In this document: piece by piece, positions 3,401-56,356 of the stretch
Layout of the letters: each line of letters begins with the position of its first letter
Numbering within the stretch: the stretch's first letter is position 1
Source of the DNA: Nitrospirota bacterium
Lineage (GTDB): Bacteria; JACPQY01
Reading direction: 5' to 3'
DNA length: 64,000 bases
Assembly: GCA_016180645.1 (NCBI GenBank)
Contig: JACPAV010000009.1
Span: forward strand, 1 to 64,000
Notes under the pieces: model-generated
The model's input: the letters and a program-made list of their open reading frames with translations, nothing else
What the model was told of the DNA's origin: nothing
Databases searched by the model: none
Translations under genes and position numbers: made by a program

Positions 3401-4604
3401 CACCCAAAACGGATTCACGTTCGAACGCATGGAGGGACTCATGGGCGGCGGCCTCGTCAAGGGCCAGGGCCGCATCGATATGGACCACTTCTACCTGGGC
3501 GAGATGTATCTCTCCGCCTCCACTCGACGCGCCCAACTTCGTTTCCCCTCGTGGATTTCCTCGACGGCCGACTCGGACCTCGTTCTAGCCGGTCCCGTTC
3601 GCTCCCCGCTGCTCACCGGCGAGGTCAAGCTCCTCACCGCGCAAGTGGTGGAAAATCTGGACTGGAGACAGGAGCTGGTGGGCCTGGTGGACTTCCGGCG
3701 CCGCGGCTCCAGCGTGGAGACCATCGATCGGATCCCGGACCATGGCATCCGTCATGACGTCCATGTCTATGGCGGCATCAACGTGCGCAACAATATCGCC
3801 CGGGGCGACTTCCTCACGGACGTGCGCGTGGTCGGCATCAACCAGTACATCAACCTGTTCGGCGAGGTGAAGGGCACGCGGGGAACCTTCGATTTCAAGG
3901 GCCATGAATTCCGGGCCGACCGGGCGGTCGTCTTCTTCAACAATCCGGTCCGGATCGACCCTGAGGTGGAGCTGTACGGGAGCACCGTTGTGGAGGACGT
4001 GCCCCAGCGCTGCCTGTGCGAATTCAGCGGCGGCGTGGAGAATGTGGCCGACCAGGGCCGGGCCCAGGAGAAGGTGGACCTGAACGTCTCGTTCACGGCG
4101 CGCGGACGGCCGCTCTACGAGGAGGAGGGGGCCTTTCGCCTCCAGTTCTATGCGGATCGATGCGTAGCCGACAACGACCTCTACAGCCTGATCTATTTCA
4201 ACCAGTGCTTCGGAGACGCCTTCAAATCCGCCGGCGCCGCGAGTCTTGAAATTTACACCATCATTCTCAATCAGATTACTCGTGAGATCGCCCAGGGCCC
4301 CCTGCGTCAATTTCTGGGTCTGGAATCCATCGAATTCGACCCCGCCCAGTCACGATCGGGAGAGCAGTTCCTGTCGCTCGTGGTGACCAAACCGGTGGAT
4401 CGCGGTCGCGAGTTCTGTTCGCAGGATTTGAAGTGGCGCGGTGTCTTGAATGTGAAGGAGTACCAGAATGGAAGCCGGATCGAGCTCGACTGCCGGCTGT
4501 TCCCGAATCTCTCGGTCGACCTGTTCGGCCAGAGCTCGGGAGTGCAGGGGAACAAGCCATTCCAAGCGGGGGCAGAGATGAAAGTCCGCTTTGAGTTCTG
4601 GTAA
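498..4604 (+). CDS. tamB: Translocation/assembly module TamB (AsmA-like/DUF490) protein
   Basis: 1368 aa, N-terminal TM anchor, beta-rich repeats, C-terminal PLLTGEV...DPEVEL...RFEFW, adjacent to an Omp85 gene. Confidence 0.8.
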   Translation: MVRRIIILVVSLAIVAVAPLLLVRTQFAQEWLKRRIHSALADAGIDGTIGSLEVKPLPLELRVRDLSLQFTAKSSLDVRLKIPTALARPSLLGLARRELRLDELEIDSPHAEVVLSKGSPSTKPVGATSKPKLSVGRFVLTRGELSFHHATEGYGASLSGLNLKYEESPSQHVEWSVDSAAMSAHESVQIGSMRGRGKASIEKGRYRIEDVEWVSGEQTLHFSGEMVPDQDATLEARIRSDLSEWARFYPPIAEVAFAKEGEPLQGRLEADLKLRLPKLDAGALIVDADMRLEEFRWGLAHVPRAEGKFQWEKDSLTLNPLTLIAQNGGAPPAKAVIKGTVKRKSDGMFEAVADIEGENLTSAPLQRWIPLLTDIRRHGPLTAHLDLSGPRPKAGEPWEWKGSVEGRMPFVDLARNGEEISHLREIRLGSSVIFSESEVRLPSAHLQAAGLDLRGNAHLDKTAARVEFSSVEADLAKLSPIMGLPVTGKVQVGGVLTKQESDVRFTGAVHAGGLTVNKREFQSVEGDVRLEGGKWTAERLVIKMPKTTLQAVGEMDVLDTRFRATLDVQDGEFRDVAMLAGVSPEMLEKFSGRSYGQVVISGQFKPSVRIVSNGKIIVEDPVIAGESFEAAGIQWSSSPHPTGESAMPPPPTPAGAERDPTRVTDADIDMKAQVRHKEGTIELKGRIQPDGKMDGEWIVTSFPMDRFWPPEYAEYELRGRLEGRGSFGGTVFEPYFSGQFETRNFILDGENVADSVLWLERTPEGVRILASLMGDEVKLDGFIDPKRDNVFKARVDLANFRVQHLINVFGPMTEFKGYVDGHVDLAGHLLQMNTWTGRVDLRHIEFVDHGLLGTVTAPLVLNLENGFAHLDPYVIETSVGQITAHGEIQLPDRVDLEASGRVGLSILESIFPTIIAQADGLVEMRAKLHGPLDLKGLLLVLDADVTQGRISFREYPHPVEALHAKVEITQNGFTFERMEGLMGGGLVKGQGRIDMDHFYLGEMYLSASTRRAQLRFPSWISSTADSDLVLAGPVRSPLLTGEVKLLTAQVVENLDWRQELVGLVDFRRRGSSVETIDRIPDHGIRHDVHVYGGINVRNNIARGDFLTDVRVVGINQYINLFGEVKGTRGTFDFKGHEFRADRAVVFFNNPVRIDPEVELYGSTVVEDVPQRCLCEFSGGVENVADQGRAQEKVDLNVSFTARGRPLYEEEGAFRLQFYADRCVADNDLYSLIYFNQCFGDAFKSAGAASLEIYTIILNQITREIAQGPLRQFLGLESIEFDPAQSRSGEQFLSLVVTKPVDRGREFCSQDLKWRGVLNVKEYQNGSRIELDCRLFPNLSVDLFGQSSGVQGNKPFQAGAEMKVRFEFW

Positions 4605-7488
4605 GCCGCCCGGACCGGGAAGCGCGGCGCTCGTCCGCATCCTTTCGCTCCTCCTCCTGCTCCAAACCTCATCGGTTTTCGCCCAGCCCCTTTCGGAATT
4701 CGAGGTCGTGCCGGAGGATCCCCTCCTGCGCGCCCAGATTGAGACCGCCATCCGGGAGGAAGGACTCGATCAGGCAGACCCGGAGTCGCTGCAACGTCTG
4801 CAAAAACACCTCGAAGAGCGATTCCCCGACCTCCGCTTCACCTACATCGAACGAGTACCGGGCCCCCGGGGCGCCTTCATCCGGATCCACGCCGCCCGGT
4901 ACGACGTCATCATCGACATGGTTTTCCACGGGCACCGGGCGATCCGCTCCGGCGAACTTCAGTCGGCCCTGCGCCTGAAAAAGGGGGAACTGTTTTCGCC
5001 GGAGAAATTGGGAGGGGCCGAGGAGGCCCTCCGGCAGGTCTATGCCAGCTATGGGTTTTATCACGCGGAAATCAGCACCCGGACTGAAAAGACCCAGAAC
5101 GGAGTGATCGTCCACTTCGATATCGAGGAGAACCGACGGGCCGTCCTCAACAGCCTGACCTGCGAAGGTGAACTGCAACCGTACTCCCAGGCTTGGATCC
5201 GGGGAGCCAGCCGTCTCCGGCGCCGGGATCCTTATTCGGAAGATGCGGTCTACCGCGGGGTCCGAGAAATTCGCCGCGCCTATTTCCGGAAGAAGCGATT
5301 CGGCGCCACGGTGGAACCGCGGAAGGAGATCAACGAAGCGGGGGACGTCGACCTGACCCTGGTGATCCACTCCGGGAAGCCGTTCGAGTTGGTCTTTCAG
5401 GGCGATCCACGCTCGCGAGACCGGGACCTGCTCGGCTTCCTTCAGTTGGAAAAAATGGATCGATATGACGCCGGTACGCTCGAAGGGTGGGCCGCCTCCG
5501 TGAAGGACGGACTTCAGAAACGAGGGTACGCCTTCGCCAAAGTCACCCTCCGCGAACAAGACAGCCCGGAGGTGCGATATCTCGTTTTCCAGGTGGACAC
5601 CGGCGACAAAGTGGCCATCCGCTCCGTCCAGTTGGAAGGGAATGTCTCCTTCAAGTCACGGAGAATCACGCAGCTCCTCCAGACACGAAAGGCAAGCCGC
5701 TTCCCGCTCCTCGCCAAGGGCACGCTGGTCGAAAGCGACCTCAAGCGCGACCACCAACGCATCGTCGATTTCTACAAGGCACGGGGGTTTCTCGACGCCC
5801 GCGTCCTTCGCCACGTGGTCGAAAAGGATCTGCGCCAACCCTATCTGGATGTCACCTTCGTCCTGCAGGAAGGCCGCCAGGCCCGCGTGGGCAGGGTGGA
5901 GTTCGATGGCGTACCGGATCACCTTCAGTCGGGCGTCGCCCGGGAAATCCAGCTCAAGACAGAGGCGCCCTTCAACCCGGTGGAACTGAAAGAAGATGAA
6001 CTGAAGGTCCTCACGTTCATGACGGCCCACGGCTATCTGGATGCCATCGTGAACAGCTCCTTCGCCATCGAGGGAGAGCCCCCCCGGGCCAGGATCCGAA
6101 TGAGGGTCATGGCCGGAGAGCCCAGTTATGTCGGCCGCATCGTCCTCCAGAGGATCGGTGAGCATTCAAAGACACACGACCGGGTCGTGCTCCGCGAGAT
6201 CAAGCTGGCAACGGGGCAACTCGTCGATCAGCAGAAAGTGGCCGAAGGCCAGCTCCGGGTGTTCCGGCTGGGATTCTTCCGCGAAGTGCAGGTTCGCCCC
6301 TCTTCAATGGCTTACATGGACGCCGAAGGCCGCAGCCTGAGGGATATCGTGATCGCCATCGAAGAAAGGAAATCCAAGGAGATCGCTTTTGGCCCGGGCT
6401 ACGACACGGACAACGAATTCGGCGGTTTCGTGGAGGGAGGCCTCCGGAATCTTTTCGGAACGGGACGCGCATTGAGCGCGAGGGGGCAATTCACCCAGAA
6501 GGACCGCTTCTACCGCGCCACGTACAGCGAACCGTGGATTTTCGACTTCGATCTGACGCTTCGCTCAACGGCCTCGTACGAAAAAGACGTCGATACGGCC
6601 GGAGGGGGTCGCGTGGGATTCGACCGGTCGGAATACGCGTTGACCGTAGGTACGGAAAAGCGGTTCGACAACCTGACGGTCACCCTGCAGCAGCGCGTGG
6701 CCCGAACCTTCAGAACCGGCGAAAAGGTTCGTCAGGGTGAAGTGGACGACAAGACGCTCAAATCCTTCCTCACTCCGGGAATGATCTACGACCGGCGGGA
6801 CGACTTCTTCAACCCCCGAACCGGCTATCTCCTTTCGAGCACCGTGGATTTCGCCCCCATGTTCCTCGGATCAGAGGTCGAATTCATCCGGCCGACGGCG
6901 CGGGCCTCCCGCTACTTCAACCCGTGGGGGCAAATCGTGCTGGCTTCAGGGTTACGCGCCTCCACCCTCATCCCCCTCACGGGCCTCGGCACCGTTTCAA
7001 GAGAAGCAGACGAAGAACTCCTCCGCCTCGGGGGAAGAGACTCTCTCCGTGGATTCGGACAGAGCAAAGTGGGCATCCCTCATGTCGAACCTTCCGCGGA
7101 CGATGCCGATCTCGTTGAAACTCGAACTCTGGGCGGAAGCATCGCCGCGCACGCCAGCCAGGAATTCCGATTCCCCATTCCCACGATTCTGCCCTTCAAG
7201 ATGGGCGGCGTTTTGTTCGCCGACGCCGGGAATGTCTGGCGCACCCCAGGTCAAGGAGACGCGAACAACGGCTTCGAAGTGAGGACCGACGCGGGGTTCG
7301 CCCTCCGGATCATCACGCCGATCGGACCGATCTCCGGCTACGTGGCCTTCAATCTGCAGCCCAAGGAGTTGGTCGAAGTGAAAACGACGTCGGCCGCCGA
7401 ACAGGAGGCGGGCGCGGGTGCGTTCAAGCAGGTGGAGGGGATGGAAAGCCCGTTTCAGATCGGCTTCGCGATCGGGGAGTTCTTCTAG
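4591..7488 (+). CDS. Omp85 family (BamA/TamA-like) outer membrane protein with multiple POTRA domains
   Basis: Signal peptide, repeated POTRA motifs (YASYGFYHA, YKARGFLDA, HGYLDA), RNLFGTG, LGGRDSLRGF, FADAGNVW, terminal Phe. Confidence 0.88.
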   Translation: MSSGKPPGPGSAALVRILSLLLLLQTSSVFAQPLSEFEVVPEDPLLRAQIETAIREEGLDQADPESLQRLQKHLEERFPDLRFTYIERVPGPRGAFIRIHAARYDVIIDMVFHGHRAIRSGELQSALRLKKGELFSPEKLGGAEEALRQVYASYGFYHAEISTRTEKTQNGVIVHFDIEENRRAVLNSLTCEGELQPYSQAWIRGASRLRRRDPYSEDAVYRGVREIRRAYFRKKRFGATVEPRKEINEAGDVDLTLVIHSGKPFELVFQGDPRSRDRDLLGFLQLEKMDRYDAGTLEGWAASVKDGLQKRGYAFAKVTLREQDSPEVRYLVFQVDTGDKVAIRSVQLEGNVSFKSRRITQLLQTRKASRFPLLAKGTLVESDLKRDHQRIVDFYKARGFLDARVLRHVVEKDLRQPYLDVTFVLQEGRQARVGRVEFDGVPDHLQSGVAREIQLKTEAPFNPVELKEDELKVLTFMTAHGYLDAIVNSSFAIEGEPPRARIRMRVMAGEPSYVGRIVLQRIGEHSKTHDRVVLREIKLATGQLVDQQKVAEGQLRVFRLGFFREVQVRPSSMAYMDAEGRSLRDIVIAIEERKSKEIAFGPGYDTDNEFGGFVEGGLRNLFGTGRALSARGQFTQKDRFYRATYSEPWIFDFDLTLRSTASYEKDVDTAGGGRVGFDRSEYALTVGTEKRFDNLTVTLQQRVARTFRTGEKVRQGEVDDKTLKSFLTPGMIYDRRDDFFNPRTGYLLSSTVDFAPMFLGSEVEFIRPTARASRYFNPWGQIVLASGLRASTLIPLTGLGTVSREADEELLRLGGRDSLRGFGQSKVGIPHVEPSADDADLVETRTLGGSIAAHASQEFRFPIPTILPFKMGGVLFADAGNVWRTPGQGDANNGFEVRTDAGFALRIITPIGPISGYVAFNLQPKELVEVKTTSAAEQEAGAGAFKQVEGMESPFQIGFAIGEFF

Positions 7489-39822: not shown

Positions 39823-40224
39823 CTACCTCCCGCTCCGGCAGGCACGGAGAACCTGGGCCGCGAGTTGGACGGCCCCGGCGGCCTGCCCTCTTGTGAAGGC
39901 CTCATAAGGAGCGCCGCCCGGCAGTCCGTTGGGGTAGCGTGTTGGGATGTAGTACCCATCCAGAATCTTCGCTTTTTCAGTGAGCGGATCGAATTTCTTC
40001 TCGTATTTCGCGCACCAGCGGCCCAACTCTATGACCGAATGGGTCTTGATGAGTTCTTCACCCCTTGAATACAGAAAACCTTTGAGAGACTTTTCCGCCA
40101 CCTGCTGGCTCACGAAACACGTCAATGCAAATCCGCCCTCTCGGAGAAGAATCCGGGCATATTTCAGGTCATCCGCCGCTTGGCGAAGCCAGGAAACGGC
40201 CTCTTTATCAGGGTCGTTTTGCAT
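39823..40224 (-). CDS. HEPN domain protein
   Basis: WLRQAADDL, SQQVAEKSLK, KTHS, YYIPTRYPN. Confidence 0.9.
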   Translation of the reverse strand: MQNDPDKEAVSWLRQAADDLKYARILLREGGFALTCFVSQQVAEKSLKGFLYSRGEELIKTHSVIELGRWCAKYEKKFDPLTEKAKILDGYYIPTRYPNGLPGGAPYEAFTRGQAAGAVQLAAQVLRACRSGR

Positions 40225-40555
40225 GGAGCAACTTCGCTGTTTTCAAAGCGTGCTTGAGAAAGGGTCTGGCACGCATGCCCTCGTACTCTTCGGGGGTGTA
40301 GACAAGAAGATCAACATTCGCCGGACCCAGGCGCATGTACAGCCGCCTTAATCGTTCAACGAACGGGAGTTTCGACGGCATCACGGCAACCATGTCCGCA
40401 TCGCTGAAGAGATTCGCGGTGCCGTTGGCGAGGGAGCCGATGAGCCAGATTTTCCGGGCTCCTTTCTTCTTCAACTCCGAGGTCAACCGGCGGACTTCAG
40501 CGCGAAGCGCCGCCAGGTGCTTCCTTCTCTCGCGGTGGAGTTGATCCGGCGTCAC
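40208..40555 (-). CDS. Minimal nucleotidyltransferase (MNT), partner of HEPN
   Basis: LIGSLANG...SDADM, VDLLVYTPEE. Confidence 0.88.
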   Translation of the reverse strand: MTPDQLHRERRKHLAALRAEVRRLTSELKKKGARKIWLIGSLANGTANLFSDADMVAVMPSKLPFVERLRRLYMRLGPANVDLLVYTPEEYEGMRARPFLKHALKTAKLLHAKRP

Positions 40556-51170: not shown

Positions 51171-51258
51171 CGGTCAACTCCATACACCTGACAGAACCGA
51201 AAGCTGGGATAGTCCTACGGAATGGGAACACCTTGTGTACAGAGTATAGAGTTGACCC
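51171..51258. mobile_element. 88-bp non-coding element with terminal inverted repeats (copy 1)
   Basis: GGTCAACTC...GAGTTGACC ends; about 8 mismatches against the copy at 53828-53915. Confidence 0.75.
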
Positions 51259-51314
51259 TAGTTGCTAGTTGCCCAACTACTTGATTGGTCACACCTGGTT
51301 TGCCCGCCGTGATG

Positions 51315-51343
51315 TTGACATAAAGCACACATTGTCATAGTAT
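51315..51343 (+). promoter_or_regulatory. Sigma-70 promoter of the BrnT-type toxin-antitoxin pair
   Basis: TTGACA-N17-TAGTAT with an internal TGACA...TGTCA inverted repeat; ATG 5 nt downstream. Confidence 0.65.
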
Positions 51344-51348
51344 TGGGC

Positions 51349-51642
51349 ATGGCTGGAGGATATGAGTTTGAGTTCGATCCGAACAAGAACAAGGCCCTCA
51401 TGCGGGGAAGGGGAATCAGTTTTGAAGAGATCATCCTGCTCATCGATGAAGGACATCTGCTCGATGTCGTCGAGCATCCGAACAAGGCCCGTTACCCAGA
51501 CCAGCAGATGTACGTCGTTGACGTGGGCGGATATGTCTACCTCGTCCCCTTTGTGAGGGAAGGCAACAGAGTCACTCTCAAGACCGTCTATCCGAGCCGA
51601 AAGGCGACGAAAGAATACCGGGCAAAGGAGGAACAGCCGTGA
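51349..51642 (+). CDS. BrnT-like toxin
   Basis: FEFDPNKN...RGISFEEI...YVYLVPFV...LKTVYPSRKATK. Confidence 0.85.
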   Translation: MAGGYEFEFDPNKNKALMRGRGISFEEIILLIDEGHLLDVVEHPNKARYPDQQMYVVDVGGYVYLVPFVREGNRVTLKTVYPSRKATKEYRAKEEQP

Positions 51643-51914
51643 AGAGAATGAACCAGGACGAAGAAATCGAGGCTCTCAAGGCCCTAGACCGGGGGAAACT
51701 GGCGCGTTCCAAGGACGCCGCAAGAGAGATTCAAGTCGCCCGGGAAGCGGCGGGGGCCTACCTCAGGAAGGATGAGCGGATCAATATCCGCCTATCGGGG
51801 CCGGACCTGAAGCTTCTGAAGCGAAGAGCTGCGGAGGAGGGGATTCCCTACCAGACGCTCGTTGCGAGTGTGCTGCACAAGTTTGTTTCCGGCCGACTCC
51901 AGACCAGAGGTTGA
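51639..51914 (+). CDS. CopG/BrnA-like antitoxin
   Basis: KDERINIRLS...AAEEGIPYQTLVASVLH. Confidence 0.88.
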   Translation: MKRMNQDEEIEALKALDRGKLARSKDAAREIQVAREAAGAYLRKDERINIRLSGPDLKLLKRRAAEEGIPYQTLVASVLHKFVSGRLQTRG

Positions 51915-52078
51915 CTCAGCCGCTGGCCACGAACGAAACTCCTGTGCGTCCGCCCGCTGGCCAACTGACGTCGTCGGAACCCCCCCCTCCGGCTCCGCCT
52001 TCAACCTCAAGATTCCGCGCAAGCTCCATCCAAAAGCGCCACCCCCCAGGCCCGATCCCGACCGCCGCGAAATGTCCA

Positions 52079-52096
52079 GTGTATAGAGTTGACCCC
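52079..52096. repeat. Solo terminal repeat of the 88-bp element family
   Basis: GTGTATAGAGTTGACCC is the exact reverse complement of 53828-53844. Confidence 0.75.
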
Positions 52097-52118
52097 ACTA
52101 GCCCCCACTAGCCCGTCG

Positions 52119-53633
52119 CTACCCCTCAACATTCGCCCTCGACTGCAATCGGGCAGTTTTCCTCCAACTGGGCATGACTTCGTCAAGTCGACCTGCTTTC
52201 CGGACAATATTGTAGGTCGTGCCATTCCCAACCTGCCAATGCTTTCGAGATGCGAAACGCTTACCCTCGTGCATTGCCGATTCAATCGTCCACCGATTTC
52301 GGGTCCGTGGGACTACTTCATCCAGTCGACCTGCCTCCCGAACCAAGTTGTAGCTTGTGAACTGCGCCACTTTCCACTCCTGGCGGTTTTTGTATTTCTC
52401 CCCCTCTCCAAGCGCACGCTCAAGCGTCCATTTTCGCGTGTCCCTTGGACGGAGAACCGTTCGAAGAAGGCCCGCTCGGCGGACGAGATCATATGAACCA
52501 GGATGACTGCGTGCCCATTCAGTAAGGCTCTGCTGAATTCTTCCGATGGAGATCGCTTTCTCAAGACTCAGGGGCCTCCGCTTTGGCAGGACCTCGTCCA
52601 ATAACCCTGCCTGTCTAACAATCTGAAATGCCCGGCTGGATTTCCTCTGAGCACGATCGCGGTTCGGATATGTCTTTAGCTGATCCACGGCTGCCTGCAG
52701 CGACCACTTGCGGTATCGCGGTTCCATGTGGCTGCAACACCTCGCGAGCATGCCCCGGCGGCGTGCAGCCTGATAGGACGCCGCATGATCCATCTGCCAT
52801 GCATATTTCGACTCGTATTTCCGTGCGATCAATCGGAGTTCTCGGTCTGTGTAGGGTCTAGCTGAGCCCAGCGAACCGGCGCGCGTTCGATTCAGAATCG
52901 TCCATCCTGCCTGCGCATACCAGCGGATTGCTCGTTCCTCTGCGACTTGGGATTGCTTTGGCGTGAGTCCACGTGCTCGAATCCGGATGGTCGGCAACAC
53001 GCCTCCAAGCGAGTCGATTCGATCACGTACGGTTCGATGCCGCCTATTGGCCCTGAAATGATCTGCAATCCGAAACCGGGGGTTCAACGAAATTCCGACG
53101 TAGGCGCTTCCGTCAATGAATTCGAGCGCATACACAGACCGGGGTTTTGCCGTGTTTGGTATCCAATGTGGCCGTCGCATATGCCTGCAAACATCATCCA
53201 GAATTCCTCGATAGTGTGCCGCATCATAGAGGCTGGGAGCCCTCTCCCGGAATTCTTTTCTCGATCGGTACTTGAGCGCCCCCTCGTGGATCTCTCTCTT
53301 GGAGTAGCGGGAATGGAGCCCACGACGCATGTGCTGAGTGGCATCTTGATGGATGCCAAGTCGGAAGCTACTCTGATACGCAACGTTTGAACCCTTTCGC
53401 CAACCCTCCAACGTCTTGTACCTACCGGCATCTCCCAGAACTTTCTCACGCGTCCAAATAAGCGGGCCCATCTTTGGTTTCGGCATATGGGAAGTTGCGC
53501 GCTCATGTATCCCGCTCTGGATGGCGATTCGGTACGCATAGGCGGAGTTCTCTTTCCATTCACTCCTCGAATGAAACCGCCTGGCGTCTGTGAGAATTCG
53601 GCTGGCCGTCCAGTATCTCCTTCGCTTTCGCAT
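52119..53633 (-). CDS. GIY-YIG nuclease with eight ~45-50-aa helical repeats
   Basis: Central SVYALEF...AYVGIS...RIADH...E...N; three repeats before and five after, pattern W(T/S)xE...A(R/K)KY...W...AY...R.G.LD. Confidence 0.75.
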   Translation of the reverse strand: MRKRRRYWTASRILTDARRFHSRSEWKENSAYAYRIAIQSGIHERATSHMPKPKMGPLIWTREKVLGDAGRYKTLEGWRKGSNVAYQSSFRLGIHQDATQHMRRGLHSRYSKREIHEGALKYRSRKEFRERAPSLYDAAHYRGILDDVCRHMRRPHWIPNTAKPRSVYALEFIDGSAYVGISLNPRFRIADHFRANRRHRTVRDRIDSLGGVLPTIRIRARGLTPKQSQVAEERAIRWYAQAGWTILNRTRAGSLGSARPYTDRELRLIARKYESKYAWQMDHAASYQAARRRGMLARCCSHMEPRYRKWSLQAAVDQLKTYPNRDRAQRKSSRAFQIVRQAGLLDEVLPKRRPLSLEKAISIGRIQQSLTEWARSHPGSYDLVRRAGLLRTVLRPRDTRKWTLERALGEGEKYKNRQEWKVAQFTSYNLVREAGRLDEVVPRTRNRWTIESAMHEGKRFASRKHWQVGNGTTYNIVRKAGRLDEVMPSWRKTARLQSRANVEG

Positions 53634-53727: not shown

Positions 53728-53806
53728 CTACGGCTTCAGAATGATCTTGCCGTGGGTTTTCCGGCCGGCGAGGTCGCGGAGGGCTTCGCGGGCGCGGTCG
53801 AGAGGG
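53728..53806 (-). pseudogene. Orphan 3' fragment of a quinone oxidoreductase gene
   Basis: Encodes PLDRAREALRDLAGRKTHGKIILKP*, versus [25 protein letters not shown] for the gene ending at 55385. Confidence 0.75.
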
Positions 53807-53827
53807 CGCACGGGCGAGAGGGCGCAC

Positions 53828-53915
53828 GGGTCAACTCTATACACGTGACAGAACCGACAGCTGGGATAGTCCTACGGAATAGGAGTACCTTGTGTACAGA
53901 GTCTAGAGTTGACCC
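53828..53915. mobile_element. 88-bp non-coding element with terminal inverted repeats (copy 2)
   Basis: GGGTCAACTCTA...TAGAGTTGACCC; interrupts the cassette ORF. Confidence 0.75.
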
Positions 53916-54446
53916 TAATTGCACGAGTTTCAGAACGTACAGACCGAAGTCGAACTTGAAATGGCGAATCTCTGGGATTCTCAGTGCCCTTGGATCGAAT
54001 GCACGGACGACCTCGCCCCATCTCTTGTCCGTGTCGGCAAGGGCGATCTTGAATATGGGCCCAGTGCGCCGCACATCGTACAGAACAAGGTCCTGGCCAT
54101 TGCAAAGACCATACGTGTTGCAGCGGACCTCAGGGTGAATCGCGTAGCTGAACGCCTGCTCGACGTGATGAGACTTTACGATGGACTCACCGGGCCGCTT
54201 GGCGTCCAGAACGAGCAAGGGCTCGTCGTCGACGAGCAAGGTGTAGTCCGGAACGATATTAACGGGATACCGCTTAGAACCGATCATCACAAACGGGTGG
54301 ACCAGGGCTTTGCTGCGCACGACCTTGAAACGCCCGGTCGGTGAGTAGCCAAGCCGCTTAAGCAATGGAGCGACCAGCTCTTCCCGGACCGCGTCTTCCT
54401 TGAAAGCAGGCTCGTCAAGAGCGCTGAAATCGAAGTCTCCGAACAT
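53916..54446 (-). pseudogene. HsdR N-terminal-like PD-(D/E)XK nuclease cassette gene, truncated by the 88-bp element
   Basis: EDAVREELVAPLLKRLGY, PDY, LDAK, QAFSYA, LCNG; the frame runs into the repeat element. Confidence 0.7.
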
Positions 54447-54574: not shown

Positions 54575-55000
54575 TCAGCGTTCCCTTCCCCAGGACCCCT
54601 GTGAGTTCGCTACAGGCTGGGCCCGGAATCTGGCGGCAAAGACTCTGATTATCAAACTTTCGAGCGACCGTGGTGACCGGCGTCGTGAGCACGGCACAAT
54701 GGCAAATCGAGCACCGAAGGCGGCCGCGTATTCGTAGCGGGGCCAATATCGGGACAAGGGTCGCGACCCCCGGGCCTCTCGCATGTACTTGAGATGTTGG
54801 ACGAGTCGCTTGCGGAGACCGGAAGCTTGGCCAATGTAGAAAACCGCTGAACGTCCCCTTGGATACTGGAACTTGGTACTACCTGCTGTCACCAGAACGT
54901 ACACGCCAGCCTGGTTCGGGACAGTCTGGATCGCGCGCTTCCGGAGCGGAAGGAGGCCACTCGCTCGGTATCTTGTGGGGATGAACTTTAGGTCGCTCAT
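54575..55000 (-). CDS. GIY-YIG nuclease-like integron cassette gene
   Basis: PNQAGVYVL...FYIGQASGLRKRLVQH; bounded by GTTAGGC and attC. Confidence 0.75.
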   Translation of the reverse strand: MSDLKFIPTRYRASGLLPLRKRAIQTVPNQAGVYVLVTAGSTKFQYPRGRSAVFYIGQASGLRKRLVQHLKYMREARGSRPLSRYWPRYEYAAAFGARFAIVPCSRRRSPRSLESLIIRVFAARFRAQPVANSQGSWGRER

Positions 55001-55295: not shown

Positions 55296-55352
55296 GTAGA
55301 CGCACCCATTACGGGTGCGCCTTCGGACGCAGGCTAAAGCCTGCGGCTACCG
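55296..55352. repeat. GTAG-type REP doublet
   Basis: GTAGACGCACCC...GGGTGCG and CGCAGGCTAAAGCCTGCGGCTAC; relatives near 39693-39737 and 57088-57179. Confidence 0.7.
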
Positions 55353-55384
55353 GTCCAACGCGTTTTCAAACAGAGCCTAGTCGA

Positions 55385-56356
55385 TCAGGGCTGGAGGATG
55401 ATCTTGCCGTGGGTCCTGCGGTCGGCGAGTTCGGCGAGGGCTTGGCGGGCGTCGGAGAGCGGATAGGTCTTGTAGATCACGGGGCGGATCTGGCCCGCGG
55501 CATACATTCGATAGAGTTCGTCCTGCGTTCGATCGACGAGGGCGTTGTCATGACGGCGATACTCACCCCAATGGATGCCCATAACGGCAATGTTTTTGAG
55601 GAGGATGCGATTGGCGGCGACTTGGGGAATTCGGCCCGACGTAAAGCCGACGATCACCGCGCGTCCTTCCCAGGCGATGCACTTGAGACTGAGATCGAGG
55701 AAATCGCCGCCGACGGCGTCGCAGATGACATCCGCGCCATGATCGCCGGTGATGTCCTTCACCTTTTGCACCCAGTCGCCATCCCGATAGGAAATGGCAT
55801 GATGCGCGCCGTTCTCCAGGCAGACTGAAAATTTCTCCTCGCTGCCTACTGCCGCGATGACCTTGGCGCCCAACGCTCTCCCGATTTGGACAGCCGCGAG
55901 GCCCACTCCGCCCGCCGCGGCTGAAACGAGGAGCCATTCTCCCTTCATCAATTGCGCGCGATGGACCAGGCCGAAGTACGAGGTCTGGTAGACCGCCTGA
56001 AACGCCGCCGCATGCTCGAAGGACATCTCGTCCGGAAGTTTGTAGGTCGTCAGGTCCGGCGCGAGGGCCTGTTCCGCGTAGCCGCCGGTAAGGAGCAGCG
56101 ACATGATTCGGTCACCGGGTTTGAACCTCGATCCCGGTCCGGCCTCCTCCACCACGCCGGAGATCTCGTTTCCGGGCGTAAACGGCAGCGGCGGTTTCAT
56201 CTGGTACTTTCCCTGGATCATCAGGATGTCGTAGAAATTGAGCGCCGAGGCTTCCACGCGCACGCGCGTCCACCCATAATCCGGCTTCGGCTCGGGAAGA
56301 TCCACGAGCTTCATGTCCTCCGGCTCGCACCACTCGCTCACCTGCCATGCACGCAT
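55385..56356 (-). CDS. NADPH:quinone oxidoreductase (MDR family)
   Basis: [37 protein letters not shown]. Confidence 0.92.

Follow-up and report, generated by a model that had tools for sequence, protein, structure and literature searches.

The nucleases I-TevI, I-BmoI and the Seg enzymes of phage T4 represent a well-known type of GIY-YIG homing endonuclease, in which the nuclease domain resides at the N-terminus and is followed by a linker and a C-terminal domain composed of NUMOD, zinc-finger and helix-turn-helix (HTH) parts. TALE proteins constitute a second group of relevance here, as they consist of tandem repeats of 33-35 amino acids (aa). The stretch of Nitrospirota DNA analysed in the present study, which comprises 64,000 nucleotides (nt) and is referred to as the window, harbours a gene, termed P0001, whose product resembles both groups in part: a GIY-YIG core is preceded by three and followed by five copies of a helical module of 44 aa. 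This protein is probably a free-standing, selfish endonuclease of the homing type, the core of which would be tethered between two DNA-gripping module arms.

The reading frame of P0001 is uninterrupted over 504 codons and, as a preliminary description of the window had stated, encodes a very basic protein with 108 lysine and arginine versus 47 aspartate and glutamate residues (net charge +61, isoelectric point (pI) 11.19), arginine amounting to 16.1% of all residues. The intact frame given there was recovered in the list of open reading frames (ORFs) and its translation, and the layout of three repeats before and five after the core was reproduced by a family repeat profile, which was seeded with eight copies chosen by eye, iterated over 155 family proteins (defined below) to yield 1,317 module instances, and detected eight significant copies in P0001. 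The gene and its parts are as follows.

52119..53633, minus strand: nuclease gene P0001, 504 aa plus stop codon, ATG start (ORF list and translation)
53484..53615, minus strand: module R1, residues 7-50 (E 4.7e-14; helices 10-17, 23-29, 31-39 and 43-46)
53328..53456, minus strand: module R2, residues 60-102 (E 5.1e-12; helices 62-69, 75-81, 83-91 and 95-99)
53178..53309, minus strand: module R3, residues 109-152 (E 3.4e-17)
52881..53144, minus strand: GIY-YIG core, residues 164-251 (Pfam PF01541, alignment of 68 homologues, structural match to I-TevI)
52725..52853, minus strand: module R4, residues 261-303 (E 5.3e-13)
52584..52709, minus strand: module R5, residues 309-350 (E 3.6e-5; diverged subtype without the H-M end)
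52449..52568, minus strand: module R6, residues 356-395 (E 5.4e-4; the most diverged copy; helices 357-366, 370-376, 378-386 and 390-393)
52308..52433, minus strand: module R7, residues 401-442 (E 6.6e-9)
52170..52295, minus strand: module R8, residues 447-488 (E 2.1e-8)

Among profiles of phage proteins, P0001 matches phrog_20046 (PHROGs v4; E 3.9e-58, 198.3 bits) in four stretches, the best of which covers residues 113-295 and thus R3, the core and R4; in PHROGs this family is annotated as 'unknown function' and carries no description. A scan of the protein against NCBIfam gave no match at E <= 1, and two Pfam hits were dismissed as weak, namely DDE_Tnp_1 (15.2 bits at a cut-off of 23) and PIN_11 (13.2 bits at a cut-off of 26.6).

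The assignment of the core relies on both sequence and structure. Pfam places PF01541 on residues 166-239 (E 7.1e-5, 23.5 bits versus a cut-off of 22.6), the GIY and YIG motifs being located at Y168 and at Y178-V-G180, within strands that are predicted for residues 165-171 and 176-182. Across 68 aligned homologues, Y168, Y178, G180, R188, E232 and N248 never vary, while at least 90% of the sequences have H192. By analogy with I-TevI, we take R188, H192, E232 and N248 to be the catalytic Arg, His/Tyr, Glu and Asn, respectively. A search of the model against 48,161 representatives of the Protein Data Bank (PDB), performed with a method independent of Foldseek, ranked the catalytic domain of I-TevI first (1ln0_A; Z 9.9, root-mean-square deviation 2.4 Å), with 84 of 92 residues aligned over model residues 164-251. 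It was followed by the 5-hydroxymethylcytosine-specific restriction endonuclease PD-T4-3 and the N-terminal domain of a plant glutaredoxin (Z 6.4 each), and further down by UvrC (Z 6.2), T4 EndoII (Z 5.9) and SLX1-type proteins (Z at most 4.7). Since I-TevI takes the first rank in this search, the core is of the homing-endonuclease structural type, and judging from the model it appears catalytically competent. The central GIY-YIG domain of the preliminary description is hence confirmed by Pfam as well as by its structural match.

A DNA-binding domain of the NUMOD, IENR1 or HTH type was not matched in P0001 by Pfam at E <= 1; in place of such a part, the 44-aa repeat array occupies both flanks of the core, from which the arms are separated by linkers of ~10-12 residues. 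The scaffold of the module is formed by W2, T3, A11, K13, Y14, F/W20, A27, Y28, A31, K/R33, G35, W36, L37, D38, C41, H43 and M44, and the motif W...KY...W...AY...R.G.LD that had been read from the repeats earlier agrees with these positions. The terminal H-M pair, of which the two residues are 96% and 100% conserved across the family, is absent from R5-R8, which constitute a diverged subtype. R7 and R8 share 52% identity at the protein level and their DNA is still 70% alike across 67 nt. In the family as a whole the period of the repeats is usually 49-52 residues.

In the AlphaFold2 model of P0001 the mean predicted local distance difference test (pLDDT) score is 87.8, the predicted template modelling (pTM) score is 0.41, and confidence falls at every linker. 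Each module is predicted to comprise three helices of 7-10 residues and a short fourth one, in line with the helical nature ascribed to the repeats before, and R3 folded by itself adopts the same bundle (pLDDT 87.6). Because of the low confidence at the linkers and the pTM of 0.41, the model is that of a chain of separate small domains and not of a rigid solenoid. Thus, as modelled, the modules are flexibly linked beads on a string, unlike a TALE-like solenoid, and a DNA-bound form could be ordered. Foldseek detected no match of the whole model in the PDB at E <= 0.001.

The family to which P0001 belongs is large and unstudied, and the arrangement of a nuclease within a module array is absent from Pfam and NCBIfam. 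An exhaustive HMMER search over 1.84 billion representatives, in which the family was counted at the level of 50% identity clusters, retrieved 5,049 members at E <= 1e-3, 2,818 at E <= 1e-10 and 393 at E <= 1e-30, the closest protein to P0001 among all representatives being 39% identical; it superseded a word-seeded protein search that had returned only five non-self hits. These five, together with the best 150 of the 5,049 (P0001 included), constitute the 155 proteins analysed. The number of modules per protein ranges from three to 17 with a median of eight and is never below three, so that the survey of repeat number which had been proposed at the outset identifies the repeats as a separable modular unit. 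A GIY core is present in 131 of the 155 proteins, always as a single copy, whose place in the array varies between the N-terminal and the C-terminal end. Of the remaining 24 proteins 17 were scanned in Pfam: four contain SF2 helicase domains (P0014, P0142, P0149 and P0153), two a Vsr-like REase_MTES_1575 domain (P0055 and P0057) and one a MUG113 domain (P0006), the latter two types scoring below cut-off. Enzymes that act on DNA are thus the partners with which the module is combined. A match to an I-HmuI NUMOD-like domain, likewise sub-threshold, was obtained solely for P0007, the nearest homologue. Other sub-threshold matches of homologues (Insulin, SERRATE_Ars2_N, AbiEi_3_N and others) were treated as noise driven by the repeats.

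Basicity is a general feature of the family, as 95% of the 155 proteins have a pI above 9 and the net charge averages +2.75 per module over the 1,317 modules. P0001 contains 16% arginine and 5% lysine, compared to family medians of 6% and 12%, a shift from lysine to arginine which suggests that the gene has resided in GC-rich DNA for a long time. In the Atlas, the clusters nearest to it are 78-88% viral and labelled 'hypothetical protein'. In the literature searched, the module is without description, and the passages on repeats, tandem arrays and novel domains in one source (PMC1564403) do not describe it.

Insights into the behaviour of such genes were gained from phages. By tblastn, homologues were located at 63 places in 24 phage records; the carriers are mostly T4-like Vibrio phages of ~250 kb with two to seven places per genome, and nearly all copies are annotated as hypothetical. 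One of them, P0023, corresponds to protein UOL51350.1 of phage XZ1 and is 36% identical to P0001 (E 2.6e-57). Its gene lies within a 1,288-bp cassette between two conserved genes, with one copy of a duplicated terminator hairpin on either side. In phage ValKK3, whose flanks are ~98% identical to those of XZ1, the same site measures 104 bp. The cassette spans positions 3930-5217 in the XZ1 locus (L002), as opposed to 3932-4035 in the ValKK3 locus (L003). The ValKK3 site carries a Cys-rich ORF of ~34 codons that is unannotated in the record, and it is this ORF which the cassette replaces. Four alleles are distinguished at the site, with R denoting a module and G the GIY core.

XZ1 allele: RRRGRRR, 407 aa
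phi-Grn1 allele: RRGRRR, 356 aa
VH7D allele: RRGRR, 304 aa
phi-ST2 allele: RGRR, 249 aa

In alignment, the four alleles differ through clean, module-sized gaps; they are mutually 56-75% identical, and the flanking DNA is 92-98% identical. Hence, arrays are lengthened or shortened within a short time, and this happens by whole modules. Since alleles are present, shortened or absent at one and the same site, the phage gene acts like a mobile cassette, and in this respect the optional intergenic cassettes look like the free-standing homing endonuclease genes of T4-like phages. The inventory of homing endonucleases given for phi-Grn1 and phi-St2 in section 16 of PMC5107563 lists other positions and omits these genes.

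The sequence divergence among modules offers a further view on their role. Copies within P0001 are 15-52% identical, and the median identity within arrays of the family is 41%. Variation was assessed in 26 arrays of at least 50% internal identity, taken from 154 arrays with at least four modules. Positions 15, 18, 21, 22, 25, 29, 30, 32 and 33 differ in 66-83% of module pairs, and 12 positions in total differ in more than 60%, as opposed to the scaffold positions 2, 11, 20, 43 and 44, which differ in at most 6% of pairs. The varying positions lie on those sides of helices 2 and 3 that are exposed, a pattern that is suggestive of a diversified binding surface on each module. Because of the basic charge, the fusion exclusively to DNA-acting enzymes and the variation on the helix 2-3 face, DNA binding is most likely to be the function of the modules.

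The interpretation of P0001 as a homing-type endonuclease starts from direct observations, namely the architecture, the intact catalytic residues, a core fold of the I-TevI type, a family that is large and mostly viral, the presence or absence of the phage cassette and the gain or loss of whole modules at one phage locus. From these we infer that the modules bind DNA, that the enzyme is sequence-specific and cuts between its arms, and that the gene homes. In such an enzyme, each module would fold by itself into a small bundle of three helices and a short fourth, and would touch nucleic acid through its exposed, basic and variable helix 2-3 face. Acting together, the eight modules would anchor the enzyme to an extended stretch of DNA, where the single active site would nick the strands between the two arms. 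Arrays would evolve as whole modules are gained or lost and as the helix 2-3 face diversifies, with a resulting shift of target preference.

Several results weigh against this interpretation. Neither by fold nor by profile does the module match a known DNA-binding domain in Pfam, Foldseek or VIA-align: the repeats of P0001 are matched at E <= 1 by neither Pfam nor NCBIfam, a PDB profile search with the protein recovered the core and not the repeats, Foldseek yielded no PDB match for the isolated module at E <= 0.001 and two rows at E ~9, and the best hit of VIA-align among 48,161 PDB chains reached Z 3.6, with none at Z >= 5. The module fits no known fold or family that was searched, by which novelty of the fold is not proven. 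Moreover, the variability pattern is suggestive at most, because surface positions vary more than the core in any protein. Between proteins the identity of modules is flat (31-37%) at every ordinal position, and nothing thus points to subsite readers that are tied to a position and conserved throughout the family; on the same grounds the idea of specialised modules beside the core was rejected. With respect to the locus itself, the only genome of the same family that was compared is not syntenic, no joint skipping the gene and no variant letters were detected in four metagenome runs, neither a Shine-Dalgarno sequence nor a promoter is recognisable upstream of the gene, and the neighbours, which are listed further below, resemble a defence islet as one of the alternatives would have it.

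Four alternatives were considered. In the first, the module would represent an unrecognised class of DNA-reading domain, each copy of which would read a short subsite of its own by means of its diversified helix 2-3 face; the arrays on the two flanks of the nuclease would read a long asymmetric site, and the gain, loss and shuffling of modules, of which the four Vibrio phage alleles are an example, would retarget the nuclease. This is rather unlikely. The preliminary description had envisaged a possibly re-programmable reader, an idea that draws no positive support beyond modularity. A TALE-like code in particular is not supported, in view of the low identity of the P0001 copies, of differences at ~9-12 positions and not at one or two, and of the beads-like model. 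From the overall interpretation offered then, the homing-type GIY-YIG core with its intact catalytic set and the modular nature of the repeats are retained, whereas the TALE-like code finds no support. If the reader proposal were true, the family would amount to a plug-in targeting system of natural origin, with fusions to GIY-YIG, Vsr-like and helicase domains, and thousands of natural arrays would be available for working out its rules.

The second alternative concerns the genomic setting of P0001. The gene is present as a single copy in a genome of 4.7 Mb, and its GC content at third codon positions is 0.58 compared to 0.70-0.76 in most of the flanking housekeeping genes. It is part of an islet of ~4 kb, which lies between a PI-PLC-like gene and a quinone oxidoreductase (QOR) gene amid housekeeping genes and contains BrnT/BrnA-like genes, an HSDR_N-like ORF, a 141-aa GIY-YIG-like ORF, a 3' relic of the QOR gene and two kinds of palindromic element. 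Within the host genome, P0001 marks a small accessory islet. The features of the surroundings are the following.

51343-51914, plus strand: BrnT/BrnA-like toxin-antitoxin pair, both members under the Pfam cut-offs
53736-54446, minus strand: HSDR_N-like ORF of nuclease fold (Pfam E 6.7e-7; PADLOC model for Type IIG restriction endonucleases E 9.5e-7)
54575-55000, minus strand: single-copy ORF of 141 aa with a GIY...YIG-like motif, adjoining the 88-bp repeat
53732-53805: QOR 3' relic of 74 nt, 78% identical to 55389-55462, reading ...GRKTHGKIILKP up to its stop
51172-51265, 53829-53922, half copy at 52073-52102, and G000:C31:311681-311761: palindromic element of ~90 nt, low copy
55296-55383: dispersed repeat of 88 bp, REP/MITE-like
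39826-40555, minus strand: toxin-antitoxin-like pair of HEPN and nucleotidyltransferase (MNT) type

With these neighbours, P0001 might be regarded as a host-domesticated or island-borne nuclease of defence or of inter-phage competition, whose array would recognise foreign (e.g., modified or phage) DNA for destruction by the core; the gene would be retained because it benefits its host or carrier, and would not spread by homing. The adjacent BrnT/BrnA-like pair, the HSDR_N-like ORF with its Type IIG match and the 141-aa ORF, for which weak matches were obtained to GIY_YIG_2 (E 0.048), GIY-YIG (E 0.099) and PADLOC PDC-S14 (E 7.9e-5), agree with such a role, as does the second rank of the restriction enzyme PD-T4-3 among the structural matches of the core; P0001 itself, however, matches none of the PADLOC-DB 2.0 families at E <= 0.01, its nearest Atlas clusters are predominantly viral, it was not found in 300 other sampled genomes at E <= 1e-8, and the phage relatives act as optional intergenic cassettes. 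This makes a defence function improbable.

The third alternative assumes that the modules bind nucleic acid non-specifically, or else bind RNA or protein, and that the enzyme, instead of reading a long site, cuts in a general manner or according to DNA structure, in the way that T4 EndoII acts on host DNA. Such a nuclease would be compatible with the module lacking a DNA-binding fold match, with the high and uniform positive charge, which suits backbone binding, with the appearance of T4 EndoII among the structural matches and with the flat module identity over ordinal positions. Yet young arrays diversify the helix 2-3 face and keep the scaffold, which is unexpected for pure backbone binding, the polymorphism of the cassette at a fixed intergenic site fits site-specific mobility, and the core is clearly nearer to I-TevI than to EndoII (Z 9.9 versus 5.9). 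This option is improbable as well.

Finally, it is very unlikely that the copy in the window is a stranded relic that derives from a phage, no longer functions and is decaying in a hotspot of rearrangement, given that the frame of 504 codons is intact with all catalytic residues present, that every domain folds with high confidence in the model and that the replacement of lysine by arginine relative to the family would indicate long evolution under selection in GC-rich DNA, even though R5-R8 are diverged and without the H-M end of the family, no Shine-Dalgarno sequence or promoter was recognised, gene fragments lie nearby (the QOR 3' relic at 53732-53805 and the half palindrome at 52073-52102) and no close relative turned up in 185,579 species genomes.

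The latter result stems from a scan with the single protein P0001, which reaches close relatives only and recovered just a fragment of 42 residues (E 6e-4); a scan of viral contigs with the same reach found nothing. The sequencing data that contain the stretch consist of four groundwater-metagenome DNA runs from one study, three of which may be its source, and no RNA runs holding it are listed. Independent metagenome contigs cover the gene and its flanks without variants, and the word share of 0.85 in run X4 reflects fragmentation at low depth. A promoter scan returned two promoter-like sites, both within the P0001 gene, against 0.7 expected, and the terminator scan detected no terminator 3' of the stop codon.

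Several observations on the remaining features of the islet were made in passing. The ~90-nt palindromic element possesses terminal stems of 12-14 bp and forms a hairpin (z -3.1 and -2.8 on the plus strand), its copies being 91% identical. Two full copies flank the BrnTA genes and the nuclease gene, a right-arm half copy adjoins the stop codon of the latter, and a third full copy is located upstream of sugar-nucleotide genes. An identity as integron attC site was dropped in view of this setting of the third copy, of an Rfam search without any match at E <= 1, and of the tyrosine-recombinase matches of the genome, none of the 16 lying on contigs C53 or C31. Immediately upstream of the nuclease gene lies the QOR relic, which is truncated by the palindromic element. 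The two copies of the QOR end are separated by 1.6 kb with the HSDR_N-like ORF, the 141-aa ORF and repeats, a segment that may have been inserted into the gene end at a later time. The HSDR_N-like ORF is probably truncated or fused, because its C-terminal ~60 codons run through the palindrome and the QOR relic.

Small GIY-YIG nucleases are reportedly linked to genomic repeats in work on Ssn. The dispersed repeat at 55296-55383 is probably the 88-bp element that the preliminary description had suggested as a cleavage substrate. It has 44 matches in the genome including itself (40 of 151 first-look candidates were scored) and its contigs reach a very high depth in the metagenome runs. A link to the nuclease is not established, as the repeat is dispersed and displays no specific association with the single-copy gene. 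The Ssn paper (PMC11893778) deals with small GIY-YIG nucleases.

Compared with the known systems, P0001 shares its catalytic superfamily with PD-T4-3, T4 EndoII and enzymes of the R.Eco29kI type; PD-T4-3 (9u75_A) and T4 EndoII (2wsh_A) rank below I-TevI and cover the core alone (residues 156-250 and 164-250, respectively). By its profile P0001 is a member of phrog_20046, which is phage-derived, whereas the copy in the window is chromosomal. With TALE, BurrH/Bat and MOrTL proteins it has in common tandem helical repeats of variable number that are joined or can be joined to a nuclease. In contrast to TALE repeats, the P0001 module is 44 aa long, its copies share 15-52% identity and vary at ~9-12 positions, and it forms separate domains (pTM 0.41); no TALE is listed among the structural matches.

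The closest relationship is that to I-TevI, I-BmoI and the T4 Seg enzymes. The allele series of 3+3, 2+3, 2+2 and 1+2 modules and an empty site constitutes natural material on DNA recognition per module: if each module adds a defined recognition, a new building block for DNA targeting would be at hand, and if it does not, the module is another accessory domain of selfish nucleases. The catalytic fold and residues are common to P0001 and these enzymes (1ln0_A, Z 9.9), nuclease and targeting modules are likewise separate, and the relatives of P0001 in T4-like phages are free-standing cassettes, each placed optionally between genes. Unlike in I-TevI, I-BmoI and Seg, the core of the P0001 family is found at variable positions inside three to 17 copies of one 44-aa module, and P0001 is devoid of a NUMOD match. 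Taken together, GIY-YIG homing endonucleases as such are well known, and what P0001 would add to them is targeting by a numerically labile array of one small module on both flanks of the core.

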